64,000 nt of DNA from a virus (Duplodnaviria; Caudoviricetes). The stretch lies in IMG/VR virus record IMGVR_UViG_3300014969_000001, positions 1 to 64,000 of that record, one strand, 5' to 3'. The notes beneath the pieces are model-generated. The model made no database searches, was not told the origin of the DNA, and saw only the letters and a program-made list of their open reading frames with translations. Both the position numbers and the translations under genes were made by a program. Below, piece after piece: positions 10,865 through 60,739 of the stretch (positions within the stretch are counted from its first letter, which is position 1; each line of letters opens with the position of its first letter).

Positions 10865-13800
10865 ATGAGTCCAGATCCGAACACTGCAAATAAGAAAGCA
10901 AAATCTAAAGCTACAGACCTGACATTTGATGAAGTTGAGAAACAGAAAGCAGCGATGCAGGATGATGAAGCGCCTGATAATTTTCTCACGCAATCTTTTA
11001 GAAGTGGATTAGCAAATCCAATACAGGAAGAGCCGCCGATTTCTACAGAATCTACTACAGAAGCTTCTGATGATTTTGATCCTGAAACAGATTACCTATT
11101 ACCATTTAAGAAATCCAAACGGAAGAAAGGTAATCGTATCGCTAAGACTAAGGATGAAGTTGATAGAGAAAAAAGACTTCAAGCAGAACTTACTTCATTT
11201 GATCAGGGTGCACCTGGAATGGATGCTTTGAAGTTGGGTAGGGAAACTCCTGATGTGCTTCGCAAAGCTTTCATGGAGCAGATCAATAAAAAGCTTGGAG
11301 GTTATGAGGTTGCCACTCCCTTTGATATAGAGAATGATCTTGTTAAAGATGCCTGGGATAACTCAGCTTTGAAAACCAGAAAGTTTGAAAATGCCAAAGG
11401 TGAAGAACAGGATTTTACTGGTTCCGGATATGACAAGCAAATAATTACTGGTAATGAAGCTGGTATCATTACTGAGCAAGTTGTTCCTCGCGCTCCTGTT
11501 GGTTCTGATAAGTTTAATCCTATGGGCCATGATCCTGGTCTTGGAGAAACAATTGATGCTGTAGGAACTGCATTAACGAATCAAAAAAACAGAATCTTTG
11601 ATTCAGCAGCAGGTCAAGGTTTTGCTAAGCTCTTTGATCCTGATTTTGACAAGACTGTATATAAAGTTCTTGCTCCGGGTATTGGTAAAGATGGTGCGCC
11701 TATTATGAAGGAATATGTAGGCACGCGTGCGCAATTGGCACAGAATAATATCAATGCTTATAACTTTTATGGTTTAGCCAATAAGAATACCTACTTCTTT
11801 GATGATATGGCAAAGTCCTTTGGGAACTGGGCACTAAGCAAAGATGATGACCTTATTGGTACAGCTAAAGCAGTGCAGTCTATTGGTCGTATGGTAGCAA
11901 GACCTTTTAGCTGGGCTTTTGGTGATAATAAAGACTGGCAGGATAAATACGAAGAAACCTGGATAGACAAGGCTTATCGTCGCACTCGTGAAGATACACA
12001 GCGTTCTTCTTTAACGCTTTCAGAAAATGCAATGAATACCTTTAGTGCTGGCTGGATTGCTGCAGGTATAGGTAGTTCTATAGGTTCACTTATTGACTTT
12101 ACTGTAGCTGGTAGTACCATTAAAGGTGCTGCCGGTGTGGGTTCCTTAGCCTTTAAAATGGGTGGAATAGGTGAGGCTGCTTTATTGAATGTAGGAAGAT
12201 TTGGAGGTACAGCTGCTATCACTGGTGTGGCTGCTTTCCATGCTGCAAAGGATGCCGGTCTTTCTGATGAGGAAGCAGGTCTTTATACTATCATTGCAGG
12301 TGGTCTTTCATCTGCTATAGAATCAGCTGGATTGTTCAGTAATGATGCTATGCGGAAATGGTTGCTTGGTGGCAAGCATAAAGATCTGGCAAAAGATATG
12401 GTTAAGCTCTTTGCTATTGAAGCCGAAAAGAAAGGTGGTAAAGCAGCAGCAGGAGCAGCCATAGGAGCAGTTACCCGTGAATCAGCAGAAGAAGTTTCAA
12501 AGAAATTGTGGCCTAAGATGATAGAATCTTTAGGTGCAGTAGCCAGAGGAAGTGGTAGATTTCTTGGCAAGATAGACCCGAAGGTAATGGCTGAAGAAGG
12601 CGTTACAGAAGGTTTGCAATCCTTATCAGATCAGACAGTCCAGGTATTATTCAACAATACTGTTCTAAAGCATAGAGAAGCAGGTAAAGGTAAATTCGAT
12701 GATCTTAATTCTATTGCTGATATTAGAATCAAGGAAGCATTAGGTGAAGCTTTTATTGGTGCTCTTACTTCTGCCGGTACATCTGTATTCATGCATGGTG
12801 GTCCAAGTATTGGCGAGTATGTAAAAGATGGCAAATCCCGGGAAATGATTCTTGGCCTGGATAAACTACTTCAGGAAGGTCGTCTGACTAAAGATCAATA
12901 TGATAATCATGTTCAGACTATCAAGTTTGTTGAAGCAAAGCTTAATGAAAAAGAAGATGTTTACAAGAGCTTCAGCAGACACAAATTAAAAAATCAGTTT
13001 GATAGAGAAGTAACGCAGCTTATCTCTGAAAAGGTAGATGCTCAAACGCGGGTAGATAAAGCCAAAACAGCGCGTGATGCTTTCATGTCTAAGATAGGAG
13101 GTGAGAATGCTTCTAAAACTATATCACCTCAAGAACAAACACAATTAGATAAACTGACAAATGACCTTGATTCAGCGCAGGCGATTGTAGATGCAAAGGA
13201 TTCGGCAATCGATAATTATAAGGATACCGCTTACATTTCAAATAGAACCAAAGAAATCTCTGACAATAATCTTAAACTTCAAGATTTAAAGAAGTTTAAT
13301 TCAGAGAAAAGTATTGGCGTTAATGAGCCACCTGCTAATAATCTGGGTGTGATCATGGCGCGTGACAGTGTTGTAAATGAGCGTGGTGATGGTCTTAAAG
13401 CTGCTTTCCGTCATGATTCCGAATTCCAATTAGGGTTTGATGAATATGGTAAAGAGAAGTCTGATGTAGATAAAGCTGAACTAAAAAGAAAACTCACCAA
13501 CGACCTAATATCCACAAAAGCATACCTCCATCCTACACTGAATACTGATAAGAATCGCGCAATAATGGAAGAACTTATGGGAGAGAAAGCAAAGGAGTTT
13601 CTTCCACTAAGTCAGAAACAGCAGAAAGAATACCACACTGTACTTCAGGAAAGAAATGATTATGCTGAAAGAGTAATGAATGCCATTCCTCTTGCAAAAC
13701 AGACAAATGATATTGAAGCTGTAGCGAAAGAGCAAGGTGTAAAACCTGTGGATTTGGAATATGCTATTCTTCATGCTGATGCTGGTAATCCAGATACAGC

Positions 13801-30017: not shown

Positions 30018-30025
30018 TACCTTTG
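30018..30025 (+). promoter_or_regulatory. Bacteroidota sigma70-type -7 box (TACCTTTG)
   Basis: Exact TAnnTTTG consensus in intergenic DNA, about 70 nt upstream of a terminator; no clear -33 box. Confidence 0.6.
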
Positions 30026-30027
30026 TG

Positions 30028-30121
30028 ATAAGGGATAATATCTAAATCTATAGAAAGAGCATTCATCATTTTTACTCTTGTATTGAAGGTTAAAGGAGCC
30101 GGGCTTATGTCCGGCTTTTTT
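30028..30121 (+). ncRNA. Putative antisense small RNA B
   Basis: Bounded by TACCTTTG and a terminator; AAGAG/CTCTT stem displaying CATTCATCATTTTTA; 8-10 nt complementarity to several start regions. Confidence 0.5.
30097..30121 (+). terminator. Intrinsic terminator
   Basis: AGCCGGGC-TTAT-GTCCGGCT followed by a T run. Confidence 0.85.
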
Positions 30122-30193
30122 ATTTGTGCGTTTTTTTCGTATCCATTTCCAAACGTATGGTAATGAGAACGTTCAACTAAAAAATTTAACTTT

Positions 30194-32450: not shown

Positions 32451-32839
32451 TAGTTCTGGCTGGCTAAGTGATCGGTTATACTTCCGGTTGTATGGTCAGC
32501 TACCAGATGAAAGTCTACAGCCTCAGATAGATCTGTGAGGTCATTGTTTACCTTTCCGGTTAAGTCAGCCATTACCTTCAGCATATTCGCTGTATTGGTT
32601 AAGGCTTCATTCCTGGCTTTCTTGTTGCCGCCGAACTCTTCCAGCTTGGCCACCAGTCTTACACTATTGTCAGGCTTGATCTGTAAGCAGGAGTAAGAGG
32701 GATTTATCCTTACACAGAACTCGCCCATTCCCTGACCATAGTGAGGCTTATGCAGAACTACTGCTGCAGCGACATCATACTTGTCTAATACCGCTTTGAT
32801 TTCTTCCATCGCGGCTTTCAATGTTGGTGAATAATTCAT
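32450..32839 (-). CDS. Hypothetical protein
   Basis: 129 aa ORF (LKAAMEEIKAVLDKYDVAAAVVLH). Confidence 0.75.
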   Translation of the reverse strand: MNYSPTLKAAMEEIKAVLDKYDVAAAVVLHKPHYGQGMGEFCVRINPSYSCLQIKPDNSVRLVAKLEEFGGNKKARNEALTNTANMLKVMADLTGKVNNDLTDLSEAVDFHLVADHTTGSITDHLASQN

Positions 32840-32861: not shown

Positions 32862-32893
32862 AAAAAAAACCCGAACAGGCTATTGTTCGGGTT
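32862..32893 (-). terminator. Intrinsic terminator
   Basis: Minus strand AACCCGAACA-loop-TGTTCGGGTT followed by a T run. Confidence 0.85.
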
Positions 32894-32948: not shown

Positions 32949-33962
32949 CTAGGTTGGTCCACATCCTTCTCCGAAAGCTCCGGACGGCATTATCCATTCT
33001 TCCGATCGCATGATGATGGATTCATAATAGTTCTTGCTAAGAGCGAGCGCCATTATATCCTTGTTCATCTCATAAGCTTTCCCCTGCTGCACTCTTTCCA
33101 TAACCGGTATCTTCCTATGGATGGTAGTCTTAAACTCGCTCTCATAGTCTGCAATAACTTTCACCTGGTCAGGATTCAAGGCATTGAGTGAAGCCCACTG
33201 GTCATTGTTTCCAAAGATACAAGCTGAACAGCTACATCGGTTCCATCCAAGATAATAGCAAGGATGAACCCGGATATTATACTTCTTGATTATATCCCAC
33301 ACTTTCTGCTCCTTCCATTTATGAACGGGCCTCCAGTGATCGACATGGCGCTTCTTACAGTTGGTATAATAATGAGATCCGAATACCTCATATTTAGCCC
33401 GGGCAGCACTTTCTTCCGCTCTCTCCCCTGTGATTATTAGGGTTCTCTTTCCTTCAAATCGTTTCTGAGCAGTGATAGCTGCATTCATTACCATTATCTT
33501 GAGATAAGCGGAACACCACCGCACAGAGAGGTCGGCTGATACTTGCGGGAATTTCCGGCGGGTATTAAGCTTCGGGGAAGTACCACCTCTCACATGCAGT
33601 CCTCCCCCTGGGCTTTCAAAAACAACTGGGCCGGTTGGCTGATTCTGCCGGAGCATTTCCCTCTCAAATCCTCCTTCTCTCCAGCTATAATAGATTGGGC
33701 TTCCCATTACTCTGGAGAACTGTAAGCAGTAATCATCCGTCACCGGCCAGTCCATAAGCTTGCTTCCCTCTATGCCATCTATTCTGTGATGCCATAGTTC
33801 TATTTTACTAGCTGGCACACCAAGTTCATGTAGACGAAGATAAGAAGCTATTGAATCTTTCCCACCAGAGAAGGCAACTATAATATAATCGTAGGAATAG
33901 AGGTCGGGTATAAATTCGGGTGGTTCCCGTGTTGGTTCTTCATTGAATAGATTCAGCTGCAT
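32949..33962 (-). CDS. PAPS-reductase family (PP-loop, Fe-S) protein
   Basis: AFSGGKDS PP-loop, RWCSAYLK, GERAEESAAR, HPCYYLGWNRCSCSAC. Confidence 0.85.
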   Translation of the reverse strand: MQLNLFNEEPTREPPEFIPDLYSYDYIIVAFSGGKDSIASYLRLHELGVPASKIELWHHRIDGIEGSKLMDWPVTDDYCLQFSRVMGSPIYYSWREGGFEREMLRQNQPTGPVVFESPGGGLHVRGGTSPKLNTRRKFPQVSADLSVRWCSAYLKIMVMNAAITAQKRFEGKRTLIITGERAEESAARAKYEVFGSHYYTNCKKRHVDHWRPVHKWKEQKVWDIIKKYNIRVHPCYYLGWNRCSCSACIFGNNDQWASLNALNPDQVKVIADYESEFKTTIHRKIPVMERVQQGKAYEMNKDIMALALSKNYYESIIMRSEEWIMPSGAFGEGCGPT

Positions 33963-33996
33963 GATTTTATAGGCTATGAATTTTAACTATTAAAAA

Positions 33997-34008
33997 ATCA
34001 AAAGGAGA
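33997..34008 (-). promoter_or_regulatory. Phage promoter-like motif copy 1 (TCTCCTTTTGAT)
   Basis: Repeated intergenic motif 35 nt upstream of the ATG, adjoining a terminator U-tract. Confidence 0.65.
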
Positions 34009-34011
34009 GAA

Positions 34012-34046
34012 AAAAGAAAAGGCCTAACCATTGCTGATCAGACCTT
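34012..34046 (-). terminator. Intrinsic terminator
   Basis: Minus strand AAGGTCTGATCA-GCAA-TGGTTAGGCCTT followed by TTCTTTTT; G-U pairs make it minus-strand specific. Confidence 0.8.
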
Positions 34047-34086
34047 CACTTAGCCTATAAGAACCGTTATGCCGAACTGTCTTATA
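34012..34086 (-). ncRNA. Putative multi-target antisense small RNA A
   Basis: Host promoter TTG-N20-TATATTTG upstream; TATAAGA/TCTTATA stem displaying CGGCAT; 12-bp GNRA terminator hairpin; complementary to many start-codon regions. Confidence 0.65.
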
Positions 34087-34089
34087 AAG

Positions 34090-34120
34090 CAAATATACTC
34101 ATTGGGTGTTCCAGAACCAA
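34090..34120 (-). promoter_or_regulatory. Bacteroidota sigma70-type promoter
   Basis: Minus strand TTG, 20-nt spacer, TATATTTG(C). Confidence 0.65.
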
Positions 34121-34125
34121 GAGTA

Positions 34126-34296
34126 TTATATTATTATCTTACCATAATGGTCAAGATGTATACGATCTCCATTTGCATTCTGCATAGTAACAGTCCTAAT
34201 CTTCTTATCATTGATTGTATTAACATTTATTCCTTTAATGAAGTAGCCTTGAAGTTGCATCTCCTCTACCTTTATATCTTGTCTGCTCTTTGACAT
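34126..34296 (-). CDS. Small hypothetical protein (56 aa, not in ORF track)
   Basis: MSKSRQDIKVEEMQLQGYFIKG...HYGKIII; TAATG overlap with the thermonuclease stop. Confidence 0.6.
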   Translation of the reverse strand: MSKSRQDIKVEEMQLQGYFIKGINVNTINDKKIRTVTMQNANGDRIHLDHYGKIII

Positions 34297-34637
34297 TACT
34301 TTTTTCTTTTGTAGACAATTGCTAATCCTTTTTCAATCATATGCTGATTTACATTCTCACCATCGAGATAAACAGTAGCCAGATATCTACCGAAAGCATC
34401 AGCCTTTTCAGTATTTATGATGACATATCTATCAAGAAGAATCTCTATCAGATATTGCTTCGCTGCATTGGCTACAGTGCGTTCTTCTTCTACTTTCGAG
34501 TGAAGCTCTGGCGCATTGATTCCAACTAATCTCAGCCGTTGTTTCAAGCTTGAATCAAAGCCGAGATCAATGATTACATCAATGGTATCGCCATCCACTA
34601 CATTCTTAACAATTGCTTTATAGTTATACAGTTCCAT
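34296..34637 (-). CDS. Thermonuclease (SNase family)
   Basis: VVDGDTIDV, RLRLVGINAPE, DAFGRYLA, VNQHMIEKGLA. Confidence 0.92.
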   Translation of the reverse strand: MELYNYKAIVKNVVDGDTIDVIIDLGFDSSLKQRLRLVGINAPELHSKVEEERTVANAAKQYLIEILLDRYVIINTEKADAFGRYLATVYLDGENVNQHMIEKGLAIVYKRKK

Positions 34638-40682: not shown

Positions 40683-40717
40683 GTTCGTTTGTTATAGGCT
40701 AAAATTAATTTAGAAAA

Positions 40718-40730
40718 ATCAGAAGGAGAA
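40718..40730 (-). promoter_or_regulatory. Phage promoter-like motif copy 2 (TTCTCCTTCTGAT)
   Basis: 36 nt upstream of ATG 40682. Confidence 0.6.
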
Positions 40731-40737
40731 AAATAGC

Positions 40738-41826
40738 CTATCCAATCAATAGGCTATTGTAGTAATCTCTCAGTTCATATAATCCCCTTCCTTCGTTCTT
40801 CTTGATGATTGTCAGTAGTTTGGTCAGATCATTGGCCTTGCTATCCACTATCGGCTTATTGGCTGGGATTATCCCCCACTGGTTGTATAGGTTCTCTGCA
40901 GCAAGCTTTCCTGTATTCCGTGGCAAGTTGGTCTTCTTATCTATCTTGTCGAAGTCATCATCCATAATAGAATACCACACGGGAGCGACACTTTTCATAA
41001 GCTGAAAGGTGTTGAAGTCAAGCCTGGCATTCTCTCCTGACAATGGAATTGCCGGCAAGCCTATAGCAGATATGAATGATAGAGTATCCCGATTCCCTGC
41101 AGTAAGAAATCCTACTTCAGCTTTGGCCGGCAGCATATGCAAGCAGAAGATATCCTCAGTCGCCTTGATATTCGAGGTCCACTTGAATTGCGGATTGTCT
41201 GTGAATGGCCGGTAGATCTTCTTGCGCTTTGCTTTCGGGAATGTCCAGGCAAAGATGGGATTCTTAGCCTTCTCATAGATAGTTACCGCCTTTGGCTTAT
41301 CATCATCATAGCTGGTGATTGTAAAGCTGCTGCACACGGTAGTATAAGCCTGATCCAATACCTCCGGAGTAATGTAGCTCGCGGTAAAATATTCAAGCTC
41401 CTCTCGCTTCCAGGCTCTGTCATTGGTGACTATCTCGATCGGCTTATTAACCTTTGGCTTTGCATACATAGTGCGTAGATTAACCACGCCTGTAAAGCAG
41501 CCATTTTCTATGAGTAGAATCTTCTCCTTTGCATAAGCTACAGCCTGCCGGAATCCTTCACCTCCTGCATTCTCATCGAGTCCCAGCCATGCCTTTAGGA
41601 ATTGCCAATGATCACCTTCCTGGCTCTTACCACTCATATTGAAAGCGGAGTAATGCCACATCCCAGTTTTCTGACTTCTATAGACACGGAAACTCGGATG
41701 CTTCTCTTCCAGGAATGGCGAGCATATACTTTTGTTCGGAGCGAACTTTGGATCTTTGATACAGTGGTAATAGACTGCTAAACCGTAGTCTAACAACCTA
41801 TTCAATTCCTCTACAGACAGATTCAT
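40738..41826 (-). CDS. DNA primase (crAss-like, Zn-finger plus TOPRIM)
   Basis: ICSPFLEEKHPSFRVY..GD, KIYRPF, KWTSN, TAGNRDT, LSGEN, MDDD...G. Confidence 0.8.
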   Translation of the reverse strand: MNLSVEELNRLLDYGLAVYYHCIKDPKFAPNKSICSPFLEEKHPSFRVYRSQKTGMWHYSAFNMSGKSQEGDHWQFLKAWLGLDENAGGEGFRQAVAYAKEKILLIENGCFTGVVNLRTMYAKPKVNKPIEIVTNDRAWKREELEYFTASYITPEVLDQAYTTVCSSFTITSYDDDKPKAVTIYEKAKNPIFAWTFPKAKRKKIYRPFTDNPQFKWTSNIKATEDIFCLHMLPAKAEVGFLTAGNRDTLSFISAIGLPAIPLSGENARLDFNTFQLMKSVAPVWYSIMDDDFDKIDKKTNLPRNTGKLAAENLYNQWGIIPANKPIVDSKANDLTKLLTIIKKNEGRGLYELRDYYNSLLIG

Positions 41827-42223: not shown

Positions 42224-42267
42224 TGAATGATGGCATAACGTTAGTTTTATTTTATTGAAACGAAATA

Positions 42268-42289: not shown

Positions 42290-42565
42290 CTAATTCTTAT
42301 TCCATCGCGTCTTAAAAATGGCGCTATCCCCGGCAACAATGCGATAGTCAGGACGACGGGTGAATACTGGCTTTAAGGTCGGATATTCATGGCTGCATAT
42401 TGCGCCACATGCCCGACACCAGTACACCGTCGGCTGACTAAAGCCGGATGCTACAGAGAATATTTCTACGGAATTATGGTAAGGCCCGAACGGGCAGTTT
42501 GGATCTGGTGGAAACAGAAACTTCTTAACCGCTCTAAGAAGGCGGCGATATTTGTGTACTAACAT
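42290..42565 (-). CDS. Small putative Zn-binding protein
   Basis: CPFGPYH...WCRACGA. Confidence 0.6.
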   Translation of the reverse strand: MLVHKYRRLLRAVKKFLFPPDPNCPFGPYHNSVEIFSVASGFSQPTVYWCRACGAICSHEYPTLKPVFTRRPDYRIVAGDSAIFKTRWNKN

Positions 42566-42610
42566 TCGGCATAATGTTTAGTGGTTAATAAAATTTATTG
42601 TAATACAAAA

Positions 42611-42800
42611 TGTTCCGGTGGGATTCTTACCCACATCTATTTCTGAGAATGGCAAACAGAAATATATACAGCCTACTCAGGACTAAGTTCGGGATTGCTA
42701 AAGATGCAACAAAATAGCAAGCCCATTGTAACCCTGCCATTTCACTTGGGGTTTCACCACTGGACTACGTTACAGTTTCACGAGGGGGTGCGCCCCTCTT
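42611..42800 (-). ncRNA. Putative structured ncRNA (multi-stem, loop-loop pairing, T-arm-like 3' end)
   Basis: At least 5 stems within a 280-nt gene-free gap; 7-bp loop-loop complement; strand inferred from context. Confidence 0.5.
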
Positions 42801-42844
42801 TCTGACACGGGCATAATGTATGTATCTATCGGTTGCAAGATAGA

Positions 42845-47119: not shown

Positions 47120-47144
47120 TCGTCTGGCATAACGGGTTTACAAT

Positions 47145-53479: not shown

Positions 53480-54037
53480 TTAAACTTCGGTCATATAAAT
53501 GCTATCACCTTCCCGATGAGTATCATAAGGTTTTTGAAGAGCAATTTTAGCTAACCACTTCTTACTGTAACGATCTACAACAGCATGGCCTGTGTATTCA
53601 TTGATGTAGAATGGCTCCATGTTGTTGTCATCATTGGCAAATTCAGTATCCGTATCATGAACGAAGATAAGGCGCTCATTTTGCTCAAAATGAGGATTCA
53701 GGCTCTGCTCTTCAATAATATTACGAGCTACATCTATACCATCTTTATGGTACAAATTTAAGCAGGCATTACCATGAAAGCAGCCACCTTTCTCCATATC
53801 GGAAACGATACCGCAATCTTCCGGAAGCACTAATGTTTCCTTATTGAGTGCGATAAATGTTCCTTTACGCTTTCCGATTGGCACGATCTCCAGGCATAAT
53901 TCATCCTTTGAATTGAGTCCTGTGCTCTTAACCTTTCCACGAATAGAAGAAGTCATAGCCATTCCATTGATTGTGAAGGCTGCTACAATTTTGCCGAGAT
54001 AAGCGGCTCTTGGGATTTGATTTTCTGTGTTTGGCAT
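53480..54037 (-). CDS. Hypothetical protein
   Basis: Start moved to MPNTEN at 54037; FHGNACLNL and HAVVDR blocks. Confidence 0.7.
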   Translation of the reverse strand: MPNTENQIPRAAYLGKIVAAFTINGMAMTSSIRGKVKSTGLNSKDELCLEIVPIGKRKGTFIALNKETLVLPEDCGIVSDMEKGGCFHGNACLNLYHKDGIDVARNIIEEQSLNPHFEQNERLIFVHDTDTEFANDDNNMEPFYINEYTGHAVVDRYSKKWLAKIALQKPYDTHREGDSIYMTEV

Positions 54038-54065
54038 AACAGTTAGGTTTAAATTAATTTGAAAT

Positions 54066-54114
54066 ATCAAAAGGAGAAAAGACAACAAAAAAAGGGCAGC
54101 CATAAGCCGCCCCC
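54066..54114 (-). promoter_or_regulatory. Terminator plus phage promoter-like motif copy 5
   Basis: Minus strand GGGCGGC-TTATG-GCTGCCC-T7, then TTTTCTCCTTTTGAT. Confidence 0.7.
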
Positions 54115-54139
54115 TTAACCTTATATGTAATTTATGGTA

Positions 54140-56143
54140 TTACCACTCTAAATCATCTGGCTGATCAGAAGCAACCTGCATTACAGGCTTAACTTCCTGC
54201 TTTAGCACTTCTGCTGATACAGGTCTGATATAAGTACCATCAGTGTAAAGCATGCCGGTATTCTCAGCATAAATCCATTCACCTTCACTTTCATTATCAC
54301 CTGGACCTACATGCCAATAGCAATCCTGCTCAGCAATCTTCTCACCTTTCTTCAAAGCGCGATATCCTTCTGGAATCTCTAACTTAAAGGGCTCTGCAAC
54401 TGGATTCGAAGTTTCAATTTCAGAAGTTTCTTCCAGCACACGAAGTACGAAGAAGTCATCTGCTGGTTTCACAGTAGTTGCCACGCGCTCTGTAGGAATC
54501 GGCAGCCATTCGGTACCATCCATACCGATGTAGATATCTTCAGGATATAGACGCATTCCTACGCCAACAACCATATAGCCTTCTGGTACTTCACACTGGT
54601 CTTGCCATCTGTCTGTAATTATATCCTTAGTCAGTTCCTTAGACACATCGTTAGACATGCTAGACGTTTCGTTAGACATAATAACCTCTTTAGCATTGTC
54701 TATAGCTTCTTCTGCTGCAGCAATAATAGACTCAACTTTAGACACGGTTGCAGGTTCTTCTGGATATTGCTCATCTACCACTACAACTGCTACTGCAGGA
54801 CGAATAAAGAACCAGCCTTCACTAGCATCAGACTTCTTAACCTTCTTGCCGATTCTATCTGCAGTTACTTCATCCCAGTAATCCTGACCTTCCGCATCTT
54901 TATTCAGGAAGTAATCACCTTCCTTGATAGTCATCAATGCACCAAGCAATTCATAACCATCCGGAGCAATAGGCAATGCAACTTCAGCTATCACCTTCTT
55001 TACCTTTTCTGCTTTGGCAGTTGGAGTAGGTTCTGATGTTATGAGTGCCTCTTGTTCTTTTATAATTTCTTCAACAGTTCCGAATTCCGGATTTGCATAA
55101 GAAAGACGCTCTCCTACCATCGGAGCATCGGCAGTAATTGGTACCTCAGTATAGACATTTGTACCATTCTCAAACTCCTTCACATGAGTTGCCTTCAAGA
55201 AGTTATCCAGCTTCAATGCATAGAAATTGAAAGCTTGCAAATACTTGCCATGGAATTCCAATAGCGACAGATCTGTATCTCTCAAAGCTTCATTGATAGC
55301 CTGATAGCATTGCCATGCAGAACCACCACCTTGCTCAGTCTTAATCCGATAGTCATAGTGCGAGTGGAAGATTAGATAGTGCATATCTTTTGCCACACGA
55401 TCATCAATCACTTCTTCAAGGCCTGAATAGTCCTTGTGCTTAATACAAGCCTGCACATAATGCATCCGGGCAATAATAGCTTTGATATCTTCCAATGACA
55501 ACCATCTGTCCTGAAGCTTCTCAATGCTGTTCACGATGTGCATGGCGTGTGATGAATAGTTATCTAAAATATCCACCAACTTTGGAATTACATCGGAATA
55601 CAGATTCGCTTCATCCCCTTTCATGAGGTATCGATCTGAAGGAATATTAATAGCATTCGTGTCCATATAGCGGGCTCCAAATGTTACTTCCAGGCGCTTC
55701 TTCTCTAATGAATACAAGCAGGAAAGCACCATCTGATACTTGCGCTCATCACCGATCGGAATCTGGAATAAGATGCGACCATAGCGAATACTTACATCTA
55801 CCTGGTCCTCATAGTTAAGAGTACCTTCTTCAGTAAGCTCCTGTTCTTCTTCCCGGCTTTCATCAAGCAATTCCCTTGTATTAGGCTTACCTGAGCGACC
55901 TACCATTACCTGCTTGCCATTCACGCTTGTAACAGACAAATGCGAAGCATACAAAGTAGGAACACCGATACGCCCTATTGAATTCTCATAGCGTAAGAGT
56001 GTGCTCATTATTTCCTCATACACATCGAACGGACGCACTGTCATTATATCCGTTTCAGAGTGCTTGAGTTCATTTACCGTGATCTCACGAATCTTTGTAC
56101 CATTGGACAGTAAATTAACTGCCATATCAAGAGTCATCTTCAT
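54140..56143 (-). CDS. Protein with possible DUF932-like N-terminus and three C-terminal P(E/D)GY repeats
   Basis: Start moved to MKMTLD at 56143; three ~55-aa repeats; acidic end DDLEW. Confidence 0.6.
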   Translation of the reverse strand: MKMTLDMAVNLLSNGTKIREITVNELKHSETDIMTVRPFDVYEEIMSTLLRYENSIGRIGVPTLYASHLSVTSVNGKQVMVGRSGKPNTRELLDESREEEQELTEEGTLNYEDQVDVSIRYGRILFQIPIGDERKYQMVLSCLYSLEKKRLEVTFGARYMDTNAINIPSDRYLMKGDEANLYSDVIPKLVDILDNYSSHAMHIVNSIEKLQDRWLSLEDIKAIIARMHYVQACIKHKDYSGLEEVIDDRVAKDMHYLIFHSHYDYRIKTEQGGGSAWQCYQAINEALRDTDLSLLEFHGKYLQAFNFYALKLDNFLKATHVKEFENGTNVYTEVPITADAPMVGERLSYANPEFGTVEEIIKEQEALITSEPTPTAKAEKVKKVIAEVALPIAPDGYELLGALMTIKEGDYFLNKDAEGQDYWDEVTADRIGKKVKKSDASEGWFFIRPAVAVVVVDEQYPEEPATVSKVESIIAAAEEAIDNAKEVIMSNETSSMSNDVSKELTKDIITDRWQDQCEVPEGYMVVGVGMRLYPEDIYIGMDGTEWLPIPTERVATTVKPADDFFVLRVLEETSEIETSNPVAEPFKLEIPEGYRALKKGEKIAEQDCYWHVGPGDNESEGEWIYAENTGMLYTDGTYIRPVSAEVLKQEVKPVMQVASDQPDDLEW

Positions 56144-60444: not shown

Positions 60445-60459
60445 ATCAAGAGGAGAAAA
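60445..60459 (-). promoter_or_regulatory. Phage promoter-like motif copy 7 (TTTTCTCCTCTTGAT)
   Basis: Overlaps the stop codon of the upstream gene; 37 nt from ATG 60408. Confidence 0.6.
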
Positions 60460-60658
60460 TAAACCAAGGCCAGAAAATGCCTTTGATAAATCCGATGATC
60501 AGACTAATAGCAATACTGAAAGGACCATAGCCATTCTCAAACATATATGCAGCTTGATAATGGATTGAATAGATAGCTATACCGGCGGCATAGAAGATAG
60601 CAAGCACATAGAGGACTTGCCCAAACATAGATGGTTCAGTTGATTGTTTCATCGGCAT
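60446..60658 (-). CDS. Small membrane protein (2 TM)
   Basis: 70 aa hydrophobic ORF ending IFWPWFIFSS; has its own host-type promoter. Confidence 0.7.
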   Translation of the reverse strand: MPMKQSTEPSMFGQVLYVLAIFYAAGIAIYSIHYQAAYMFENGYGPFSIAISLIIGFIKGIFWPWFIFSS

Positions 60659-60688
60659 TGACGGTTATTAGCGAAGGCTAAAAGATAA

Positions 60689-60718
60689 GCAAACTTACGG
60701 AATTAACCATAAGTTTGC
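60689..60718. promoter_or_regulatory. Back-to-back Bacteroidota -7 boxes (TAAGTTTGC on both strands)
   Basis: GCAAACTTA-N12-TAAGTTTGC inverted repeat. Confidence 0.6.
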
Positions 60719-60739
60719 AATCTTCAAATAGATGTTATA

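Follow-up and report, generated by a model that had tools for sequence, protein, structure and literature searches.

Does the 163-nt gap at 33963-34125 in the replication block of the virus record IMGVR_UViG_3300014969_000001 merely part two genes, or does it encode a small regulatory RNA that is directed at the phage's own messenger RNAs? The window considered here is the first 64 kb of this 101,590-bp record; positions are window coordinates, and those beyond the window are genome coordinates. The sequence indicates that the gap holds a gene for a non-coding RNA of about 75 nt, framed by a host sigma-A-type promoter and a strand-specific intrinsic terminator, and the genome's strongest predicted complementarity to ribosome-binding windows coincides with this unit, which is one of very few that run from promoter to terminator without an open reading frame (ORF). 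We tentatively favour, with a confidence that stops somewhat short of even, the reading that the product is a trans-acting small RNA (sRNA) in the style of GibS and FopS of Bacteroides, which would repress the phage's own genes.

As the initial annotation had proposed, all elements of a self-contained non-coding unit could be located on the minus strand of the gap, in the order TTG, 20 nt, TATATTTG, weak hairpin, terminator, U-tract, repeated phage motif, short leader, and next ATG, and the terminator folds on this strand only. The TTG (34118-34120, minus strand) is a -33-like element and, together with the -7 box TATATTTG (34090-34097, minus strand), which fits TAnnTTTG, makes up a putative host promoter of the Bacteroidota sigma-A type, TTG-N20-TAnnTTTG. 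Because TAnnTTTG lies at -12 to -5 in flavobacterial promoters (PMC9723704), the predicted start is A34085, a purine at the base of the hairpin and the first base of it. The pattern at 34120-34090 agrees, as a motif match only, with the sigma-A-type promoter of GibS/FopS-type sRNAs. The genome contains TAnnTTTG at 83 places, 13 of which touch intergenic DNA; as such DNA makes up 5.9% of the genome, this is a 2.6-fold intergenic enrichment. For the extended pattern TTG-N18-21-TAnnTTTG, 8 matches stand against an overall expectation of 6.8. Half of them are intergenic, all with N19 or N20 spacers, where about 0.4 would be expected in intergenic DNA, and the other four are coding and all N21. Of the four intergenic matches, one belongs to the RNA unit, one precedes a 70-aa gene (60720-60690), and two lie ahead of the first structural-block gene (70440-70537).

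The non-coding RNA predicted to extend from A34085 to the end of the U-tract (34009-34085, minus strand) has about 77 nt and a fold of -22.7 kcal/mol (z -3.4), with a hairpin at nt 1-29, an open linker at nt 30-34, and the terminator. In the 5' hairpin (34057-34085, minus strand), a 6-bp A/U-rich outer stem and a 3-bp inner stem carry the loop GCAUAA; the hairpin itself had been described correctly, but the freely displayed CGGCAU once ascribed to its loop is not there, as the CGG lies inside the inner stem. The intrinsic terminator (34018-34047, minus strand) has a 13-bp stem including 4 G-U pairs, a GCAA loop, and then the U-tract, and its fold energy of -17.6 kcal/mol on the minus strand against only -2.2 on the plus strand points to a structured, terminated unit on the minus strand. 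The U-tract proper (34017-34007) runs into a repeated, promoter-like phage motif with the core CTCCTTTTGAT (33996-34017 in all, minus strand). This core with its A/T-rich block is present in at least 12 copies ahead of genes in the minus-strand replication block. The copies are often joined to the U-tract of a terminator, several of them come directly after hairpins, and those in the window lie near 33997, 40718, 42268, 48656, 54066, 57025 and 62899. A tRNA/tmRNA scan found none, and Rfam gave no match at the gathering score in the whole genome, nor any family for the RNA even at E = 10.

No conserved ORF was found in the RNA unit on either strand, the RNA strand having no ORF at all, and natural variants allowed its coding status and constancy to be examined further. 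The variants are DNA contigs from four runs, one contig per variant, and the gap is spanned whole only in the variant X5 and piecewise in X2. The X5 contig covers 33934-34442 and carries 37 substitutions. Among the changes listed, 20 substitutions fall in the overlap of a 56-aa gene, which lies upstream of the gap (34126-34296, minus strand), and the plus-strand ORF 34069-34293, and 13 of them are at third codon positions of the 56-aa ORF (p 0.004). These same 20 alter 6 of the 56 residues of the 56-aa ORF, and in the plus-strand ORF they alter 15 residues and introduce two stops. This pattern indicates that the 56-aa gene is real and that the plus-strand ORF is not; the latter, named beforehand as a possible refutation of the RNA, was thus rejected as a gene, being broken in X5 and changing there as the antisense of the 56-aa gene.

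The RNA unit itself changes little in X5. No change among those listed falls within 34034-34105, which comprises the -7 box, the hairpin, both seeds (defined below) and the 5' arm of the terminator, whereas 34106-34125 differs by 2 substitutions and 2 indels, and 34176-34264 by 20 substitutions. The two substitutions and two single-base indels of the promoter region lie in 34106-34121 (spacer and just upstream of the TTG), so that both promoter elements, TTG and -7 box, are preserved, now 19 instead of 20 nt apart. Two terminator changes, a G-U pair turned into G-C at 34026 and the loop GCAA turned into GAAA at 34033, both keep the fold, and further single-base indels lie in A/T runs at 33996 and 34009. 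The X5 RNA has the same predicted fold at -24.9 kcal/mol, and the single change in X2, at 34080, falls at the top of the outer stem. The invariance of 34034-34105 lends mild support to a constraint on this segment.

The complementarity to start regions resides in two predicted seeds. Seed 1 (RNA nt 9-23; 34063-34077, minus strand) is complementary to a GUUAUGCC-type motif of start regions, and seed 2 (RNA nt 26-40; 34046-34060, minus strand), which contains the single-stranded linker, is complementary to the leader motif UUAGCCU(AUA). We compared the RNA with natural 40-mers on a gene set of 109 crude longest-ORF calls with three manual corrections, and the main statistic was the number of ungapped helices, of which accessibility is not a part. 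Contiguous helices at or below -16 kcal/mol in the -25..+10 windows join the RNA to 8 trans genes, against a mean of 0.99 for natural 40-mers (fraction 4.4e-4), and at or below -18 kcal/mol to 5 genes against a mean of 0.30 (fraction 5e-5). Exact 9-mers with at least 3 G/C in the -40..+20 windows match 6 trans genes, a number reached at only three genome loci (1.3e-4 of 40-mers). At neither -16 nor -17 does any of the 1918 other intergenic 40-mers attain the RNA's value, antisense copies made from real start regions match the RNA in 0-5% of cases, gene-interior windows contain 0-1 such helices where 2-4 would be expected, and the opposite strand of the locus gives 0-1 matches. When the 40-mer is moved along the locus, the helix count peaks where it begins at the predicted A34085, and relative to the genes the target sites are concentrated between -21 and +9. 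All 9-mer matches genome-wide, 23 against 21 on the two strands, show neither excess nor strand bias. The earlier claim that the seeds complement the windows in which ribosomes bind several phage mRNAs is borne out, to a degree beyond natural control sequences, and we judge it unlikely (order of 1e-3) that the genome's strongest complementarity of this kind coincides by chance with one of the few promoter-to-terminator units that lack an ORF. The word "global" that went with the claim goes too far, as several own genes are matched, but only about 8 of the 109.

The predicted sites all lie on the minus strand. Seed 1 would pair with 47126-47135, at -16..-7 of a 525-aa gene (start 47119), in a 10-bp helix of -20.0 kcal/mol stacking energy; with 42564-42574, at -9..+1 of a 91-aa gene (start 42565), in an 11-bp helix of -19.2; with 42232-42240, at -17..-9 of a 131-aa gene (start 42223), in a 9-bp helix of -16.7 that includes the first AUG after the phage motif; and with 54033-54044, over the start 54037 of a 185-aa gene, in a 12-bp helix with one G-U pair (-20.9). 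Seed 2 would form a 12-bp helix of -18.3 at 40692-40703, -21..-10 of a 108-aa gene (start 40682), a 10-bp helix of -19.8 at 32462-32471, -21..-12 of an 86-aa gene (start 32450), and a further helix in the 10-12 bp range at the leader of the gene that starts at genome position 71664; a perfect 10-nt complement of seed 2 also lies at 33967-33976, -14..-5 in the leader of the PAPS-reductase-like gene (start 33962) directly downstream of the gap. All target strings cited in the initial annotation are present with the letters given there, four of the paired AUGs are, as it had said, the first AUG after the repeated phage motif, and the start of the virion RNA polymerase gene does pair, by 8 bp with seed 2 at 10865. 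For the 185-aa gene, the start was moved to 54037 because in the region 54037-54140 a terminator hairpin (with the ATG 54103 in its loop), a U-tract and the phage promoter motif lie inside the extension of the longer call; the true start of ORF 53480-54103 is therefore most likely 54037. The predicted targets share no common annotated function. Upstream of the 91-aa gene lies a 279-nt gene-free gap (42566-42844), which the initial annotation had listed as a separate structured RNA and which has no Rfam match at the gathering score.

The longest match concerns a gene for a 70-aa hydrophobic protein (start 60658), whose predicted 27-nt leader and start codon (60652-60685, minus strand) are a collinear complement of RNA nt 11-39, so that this leader carries both seeds in the order of the sRNA, as had been noticed earlier. 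Duplexfold gives -27.1 kcal/mol and about 24 bp in four blocks, the seed 1 part contributing 7+6 bp; this pairing energy is not significant on its own. The 70-aa gene (60446-60720) encodes two hydrophobic stretches, as judged by eye, and has its own host-type promoter, TTG-N20-TAAGTTTG, at 60720-60690; gene and RNA together resemble a trans-encoded type I toxin-antitoxin arrangement.

When aligned with several start regions, the plus strand reads UUAGCCU(AUA), then a short spacing, then GUUAUGCCRAA. It looks like a composite of a leader family common to several genes, so that the first 40 nt of the RNA are the antisense of that family. The description of the RNA as "anti-start-codon" holds for part of the sites. 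The paired AUG is the start codon at 54037 and 60658, that is, at 2 of the 5 seed 1 sites, but at the sites beginning at 42232, 42565 and 47126 the paired AUGs (42236, 42572 and 47130, within the GUUAUGCC motif) are out of frame and lie 7-13 nt before the main start. They open out-of-frame ORFs of 37, 12 and 62 codons, respectively, that overlap the main starts, and these upstream ORFs may be regulatory. The core of the target motif of seed 2 also recurs in RNA structures of the replication block: the near-palindrome ATAGCCTAT/ATAGGCTAT makes up the terminator at 40732-40758, and the terminator loop at 32868-32893 contains ATAGCC.

We propose that host RNA polymerase would start at A34085 and end at the terminator, giving an RNA in which a short open linker joins the 5' hairpin to the hairpin of the terminator. 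The two seeds would pair with -21..+9 of about 8 phage mRNAs and of the directly downstream gene, and this pairing would block ribosome loading, as GibS and FopS do in Bacteroides. Upstream-operon transcripts that end at the same terminator could add copies derived from the 3' untranslated region (UTR). Most of the putative targets belong to the replication/early block. The phage-specific motif heads the replication-block genes, and host-type promoters head the structural block, the RNA unit and the 70-aa gene; given the phage motif of the targets and the host-type promoter of the RNA, the likeliest role would be translational shut-off or tuning of early genes, which would set in, we infer, once host-polymerase transcription runs. 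The roles first suggested for the RNA, in a carrier state, dormancy or superinfection immunity, are not supported, nor is a partnership with a second candidate, sRNA B, whose 40-mers pair with start regions at a rate near the control mean (at most 3 start regions at or below -16, none to one at or below -17). The sRNA B locus (30018-30160) has a -7 box and a terminator, without a TTG at the right spacing.

Several points weigh against this proposal. The predicted fold leaves the linker part of seed 2 single-stranded but buries part of seed 1 in the hairpin stem, and three of the AUGs that it would pair with are, as the frames read, not start codons. The gene starts used in the statistics are rough. 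Duplexfold energies, which allow loops, are better than those of mononucleotide shuffles but not exceptional against natural 40-mers (p 0.07-0.2), and for this reason they are not used as support. The target matches fall into two motif families and are therefore not independent, so that the effective number of events is about 2; one counted target (genome 84674-84967, minus strand) may be no gene. The leader motifs TTATGCC (4 observed, 0.3 expected) and TAGCCTA (3 observed, 0.16 expected) appear enriched, but these k-mer enrichments are lost after multiple-test correction, and a 10-mer common to three gaps is not significant alone. The invariance in X5 rests on the changes listed, among which 75 weaker table rows are not included, and a coding stretch of similar length (34265-34349) is likewise unchanged. 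Finally, the homologues of the neighbouring gene, at best about 60% identical and in unrelated contexts, are too distant for seed-target covariation.

The gap could instead be an ordinary operon end, the 3' UTR and terminator of the upstream operon (helicase ... SNase-like ... 56-aa) abutting the restart promoter of the next gene, in which case the -7 box and the complementarity would be remnants without function, perhaps of an inverted copy of a mobile leader cassette; we judge this unlikely, and it is the best of the alternatives. Transcripts of the 56-aa gene would also stop at the terminator of the gap, the upstream genes are closely packed without an earlier terminator, and junctions of a terminator with the phage motif are recurrent across the block. 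With its ATG and its open frame, the plus strand of the locus resembles one of the family's leaders, a TAnnTTTG in any given gap is not rare, and the Duplexfold test is not significant. A functionless 3' UTR, however, should vary like 34106-34125, and 34034-34105 shows no change in X5 among those listed. Intergenic DNA contains just four copies of the full promoter pattern, and the top start-region complementarity lies exactly between the predicted start and the terminator, on that strand only.

It is less likely still that the gap acts in cis as a leader, in which the host-type promoter would serve the PAPS-reductase-like gene, the terminator would attenuate, seed 2 in read-through transcripts would mask the site at -14..-5, and only transcripts from the phage-motif promoter would be translated. 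The whole-gap fold does pair seed 2 with 33967-33976 around the terminator (-45 kcal/mol, z -3.7), the two segments form a perfect 10-nt inverted repeat 74 nt apart, and a second gap with the 10-mer (40683-40737) likewise has a complement in the terminator just upstream. Nevertheless, an antiterminator alternative is not visible in the folds, and seed 1 and seven other start regions are left unexplained. Moreover, such a cis-acting leader is compatible with the trans-acting sRNA rather than exclusive of it.

That the RNA is real but aimed at host mRNAs, as has been proposed for FopS-like copies in other Bacteroidota phages, with the matches to phage leaders being secondary, strikes us as very improbable. 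Its architecture is the same as that of host sRNAs (PMC7366714, PMC11697453), but the G/C-rich flanks of the seeds misfit the A-rich start regions that are typical of Bacteroidota (PMC6847099). The seed pattern is, furthermore, absent from 185,579 species genomes, and the phage-internal signal already exceeds chance. Least probable of all is that the leader motifs are operators for a protein, whether a RegA-like translational repressor or a DNA-binding regulator, and that the locus is reversed because it is or was a plus-strand gene start: the motifs do recur in leaders irrespective of the locus, their core ATAGNCTAT is almost palindromic, and T4 RegA, according to work with systematic evolution of ligands by exponential enrichment (SELEX), recognises start regions with a similar UUAUG core, but the plus-strand ORF contains stops in X5 and its changes follow the pattern of an antisense to the 56-aa gene, a plus-strand -7 box is absent upstream of it, the terminator hairpin reaches only -2.2 kcal/mol on the plus strand, and the promoter and terminator that frame the reversed copy remain unexplained.

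The favoured reading, an sRNA directed at the phage's own genes, has its closest structural parallel in the GibS and FopS family, trans-encoded sRNAs of Bacteroides thetaiotaomicron for which ribosome blocking was demonstrated, with a FopS copy reported in a Bacteroides phage (PMC7366714, PMC11697453). The initial annotation knew of no such description for crAss-like phages; this needs to be qualified, since GibS and FopS of Bacteroides act in this way. Candidate and family share an intergenic position, a sigma-A-type promoter and a Rho-independent terminator, as well as, for the candidate as a prediction, pairing of seeds in the 5' part at or near the start codons of several mRNAs and the blocking of initiation in a phylum without Shine-Dalgarno use. 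Unlike GibS and FopS, the candidate has a hairpin and not a long single strand as its 5' part, its predicted targets are the phage's own genes, and its host would be a soil bacterium. It has no sequence or covariance-model similarity to them and is not a member of the FopS family, a FopS/GibS covariance-model match being absent in 33900-34200 up to E = 10.

Other phage systems offer partial parallels. The C4 RNA of P1 and the CI RNA of P4, which arise in temperate phages by processing of longer transcripts, have a single operon as their target and establish immunity. The candidate resembles them as a short phage RNA predicted to pair with a few sites in the phage's own transcripts, but it has its own promoter and scattered targets and does not fit that type, and nothing here points to lysogeny, though no search for lysogeny genes was made. 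In T4, the protein RegA occupies the start regions of a group of early mRNAs and thereby shuts off their translation; it is the nearest functional analogue of the proposed role, the specificity element being a protein there and an RNA here. The promoter-early stem-loops (PeSLs) of T4-type phages, which have sigma-70-like promoters and are not reported to encode regulators (PMC2839356), resemble the fusion of a terminator hairpin to a repeated promoter motif at 33996-34047 and in its sister copies, a resemblance confined to the 3' end of the unit; in contrast, the phage motif of this genome is unlike the host consensus. The virulent Pseudomonas phage PAK_P3 produces the abundant sRNA1 and sRNA2, which have no assigned function and single 11-nt matches (PMC4933390), and the crAss-like phage phi14:2 produces long non-coding RNAs to which no function is assigned (bioRxiv 10.1101/2020.03.07.982082). 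These are likewise small or non-coding intergenic RNAs of virulent phages, but none is linked to a set of start regions. In phi14:2, the injected polymerase reads the early genes and the host polymerase the middle and late ones (bioRxiv 10.1101/2020.03.07.982082).

The genome around the locus has a crAss-like layout, with terminase, portal and major head genes on the plus strand and a 4684-aa ORF with a DFDID motif. The ends of the record are 123-bp direct terminal repeats, and the public runs listed as containing this DNA, among which there is no RNA run, come from rhizosphere and soil. The replication block lies on the minus strand from about 70076 down to 31608 and includes genes for a DnaB-like helicase, a primase and an SNase-like nuclease. 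The 56-aa gene upstream of the gap overlaps the SNase-like gene (34296-34637) by TAATG; X5 has a 12-nt insertion at 34295-34296, between the SNase-like stop and the 56-aa ATG, by which a short spacer replaces the overlap and both frames are kept. The PAPS-reductase-like gene occupies 32949-33962 on the minus strand. Leaders are A-rich genome-wide and lack a Shine-Dalgarno motif, which would be expected for a Bacteroidota host (PMC6847099). A lipoprotein query for a clue to the host gave no match.

Searches for relatives of the locus returned little. The phage collection contained no DNA match, viral contigs lacked an exact 31-mer taken from the RNA, and helicase and capsid queries gave no match. 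The best protein match to the PAPS-reductase-like gene is 60-61% identical, and homologues with 42-56% identity lie at four metagenome loci and one in IMG/VR, all of which lack the gap and have unrelated surroundings. The 16-nt phage motif has 117 database loci, which are unrelated chance or Shine-Dalgarno-like matches, mostly ribosome-binding sites, because the reverse complement of the motif contains AAGGAG.

To our knowledge, the timing of crAss-like gene expression is known only at the level of transcription, at which the virion polymerase acts first and the host polymerase afterwards. We know of no post-transcriptional regulator described in these phages, and functional small RNAs of virulent phages are almost unknown. 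In its boldest form, which we place on the unlikely side, the reading set out here would give a virulent crAss-like phage one host-polymerase-driven sRNA as the RNA counterpart of T4 RegA, which would recognise a leader code of UUAGCCU and GUUAUGCC in 8-12 early or accessory genes and turn off their translation together at the early-to-late transition; with the same reserve, we speculate that it would take in the gene for a small membrane protein whose whole leader the RNA covers. If true, this would provide a compact and testable example of a multi-target translational switch encoded by a phage, in a phylum whose initiation does not use Shine-Dalgarno pairing; the regulon of the RNA would be marked by a short leader code, and mutations in the seeds with compensatory mutations would offer a simple handle on early-gene shut-off.

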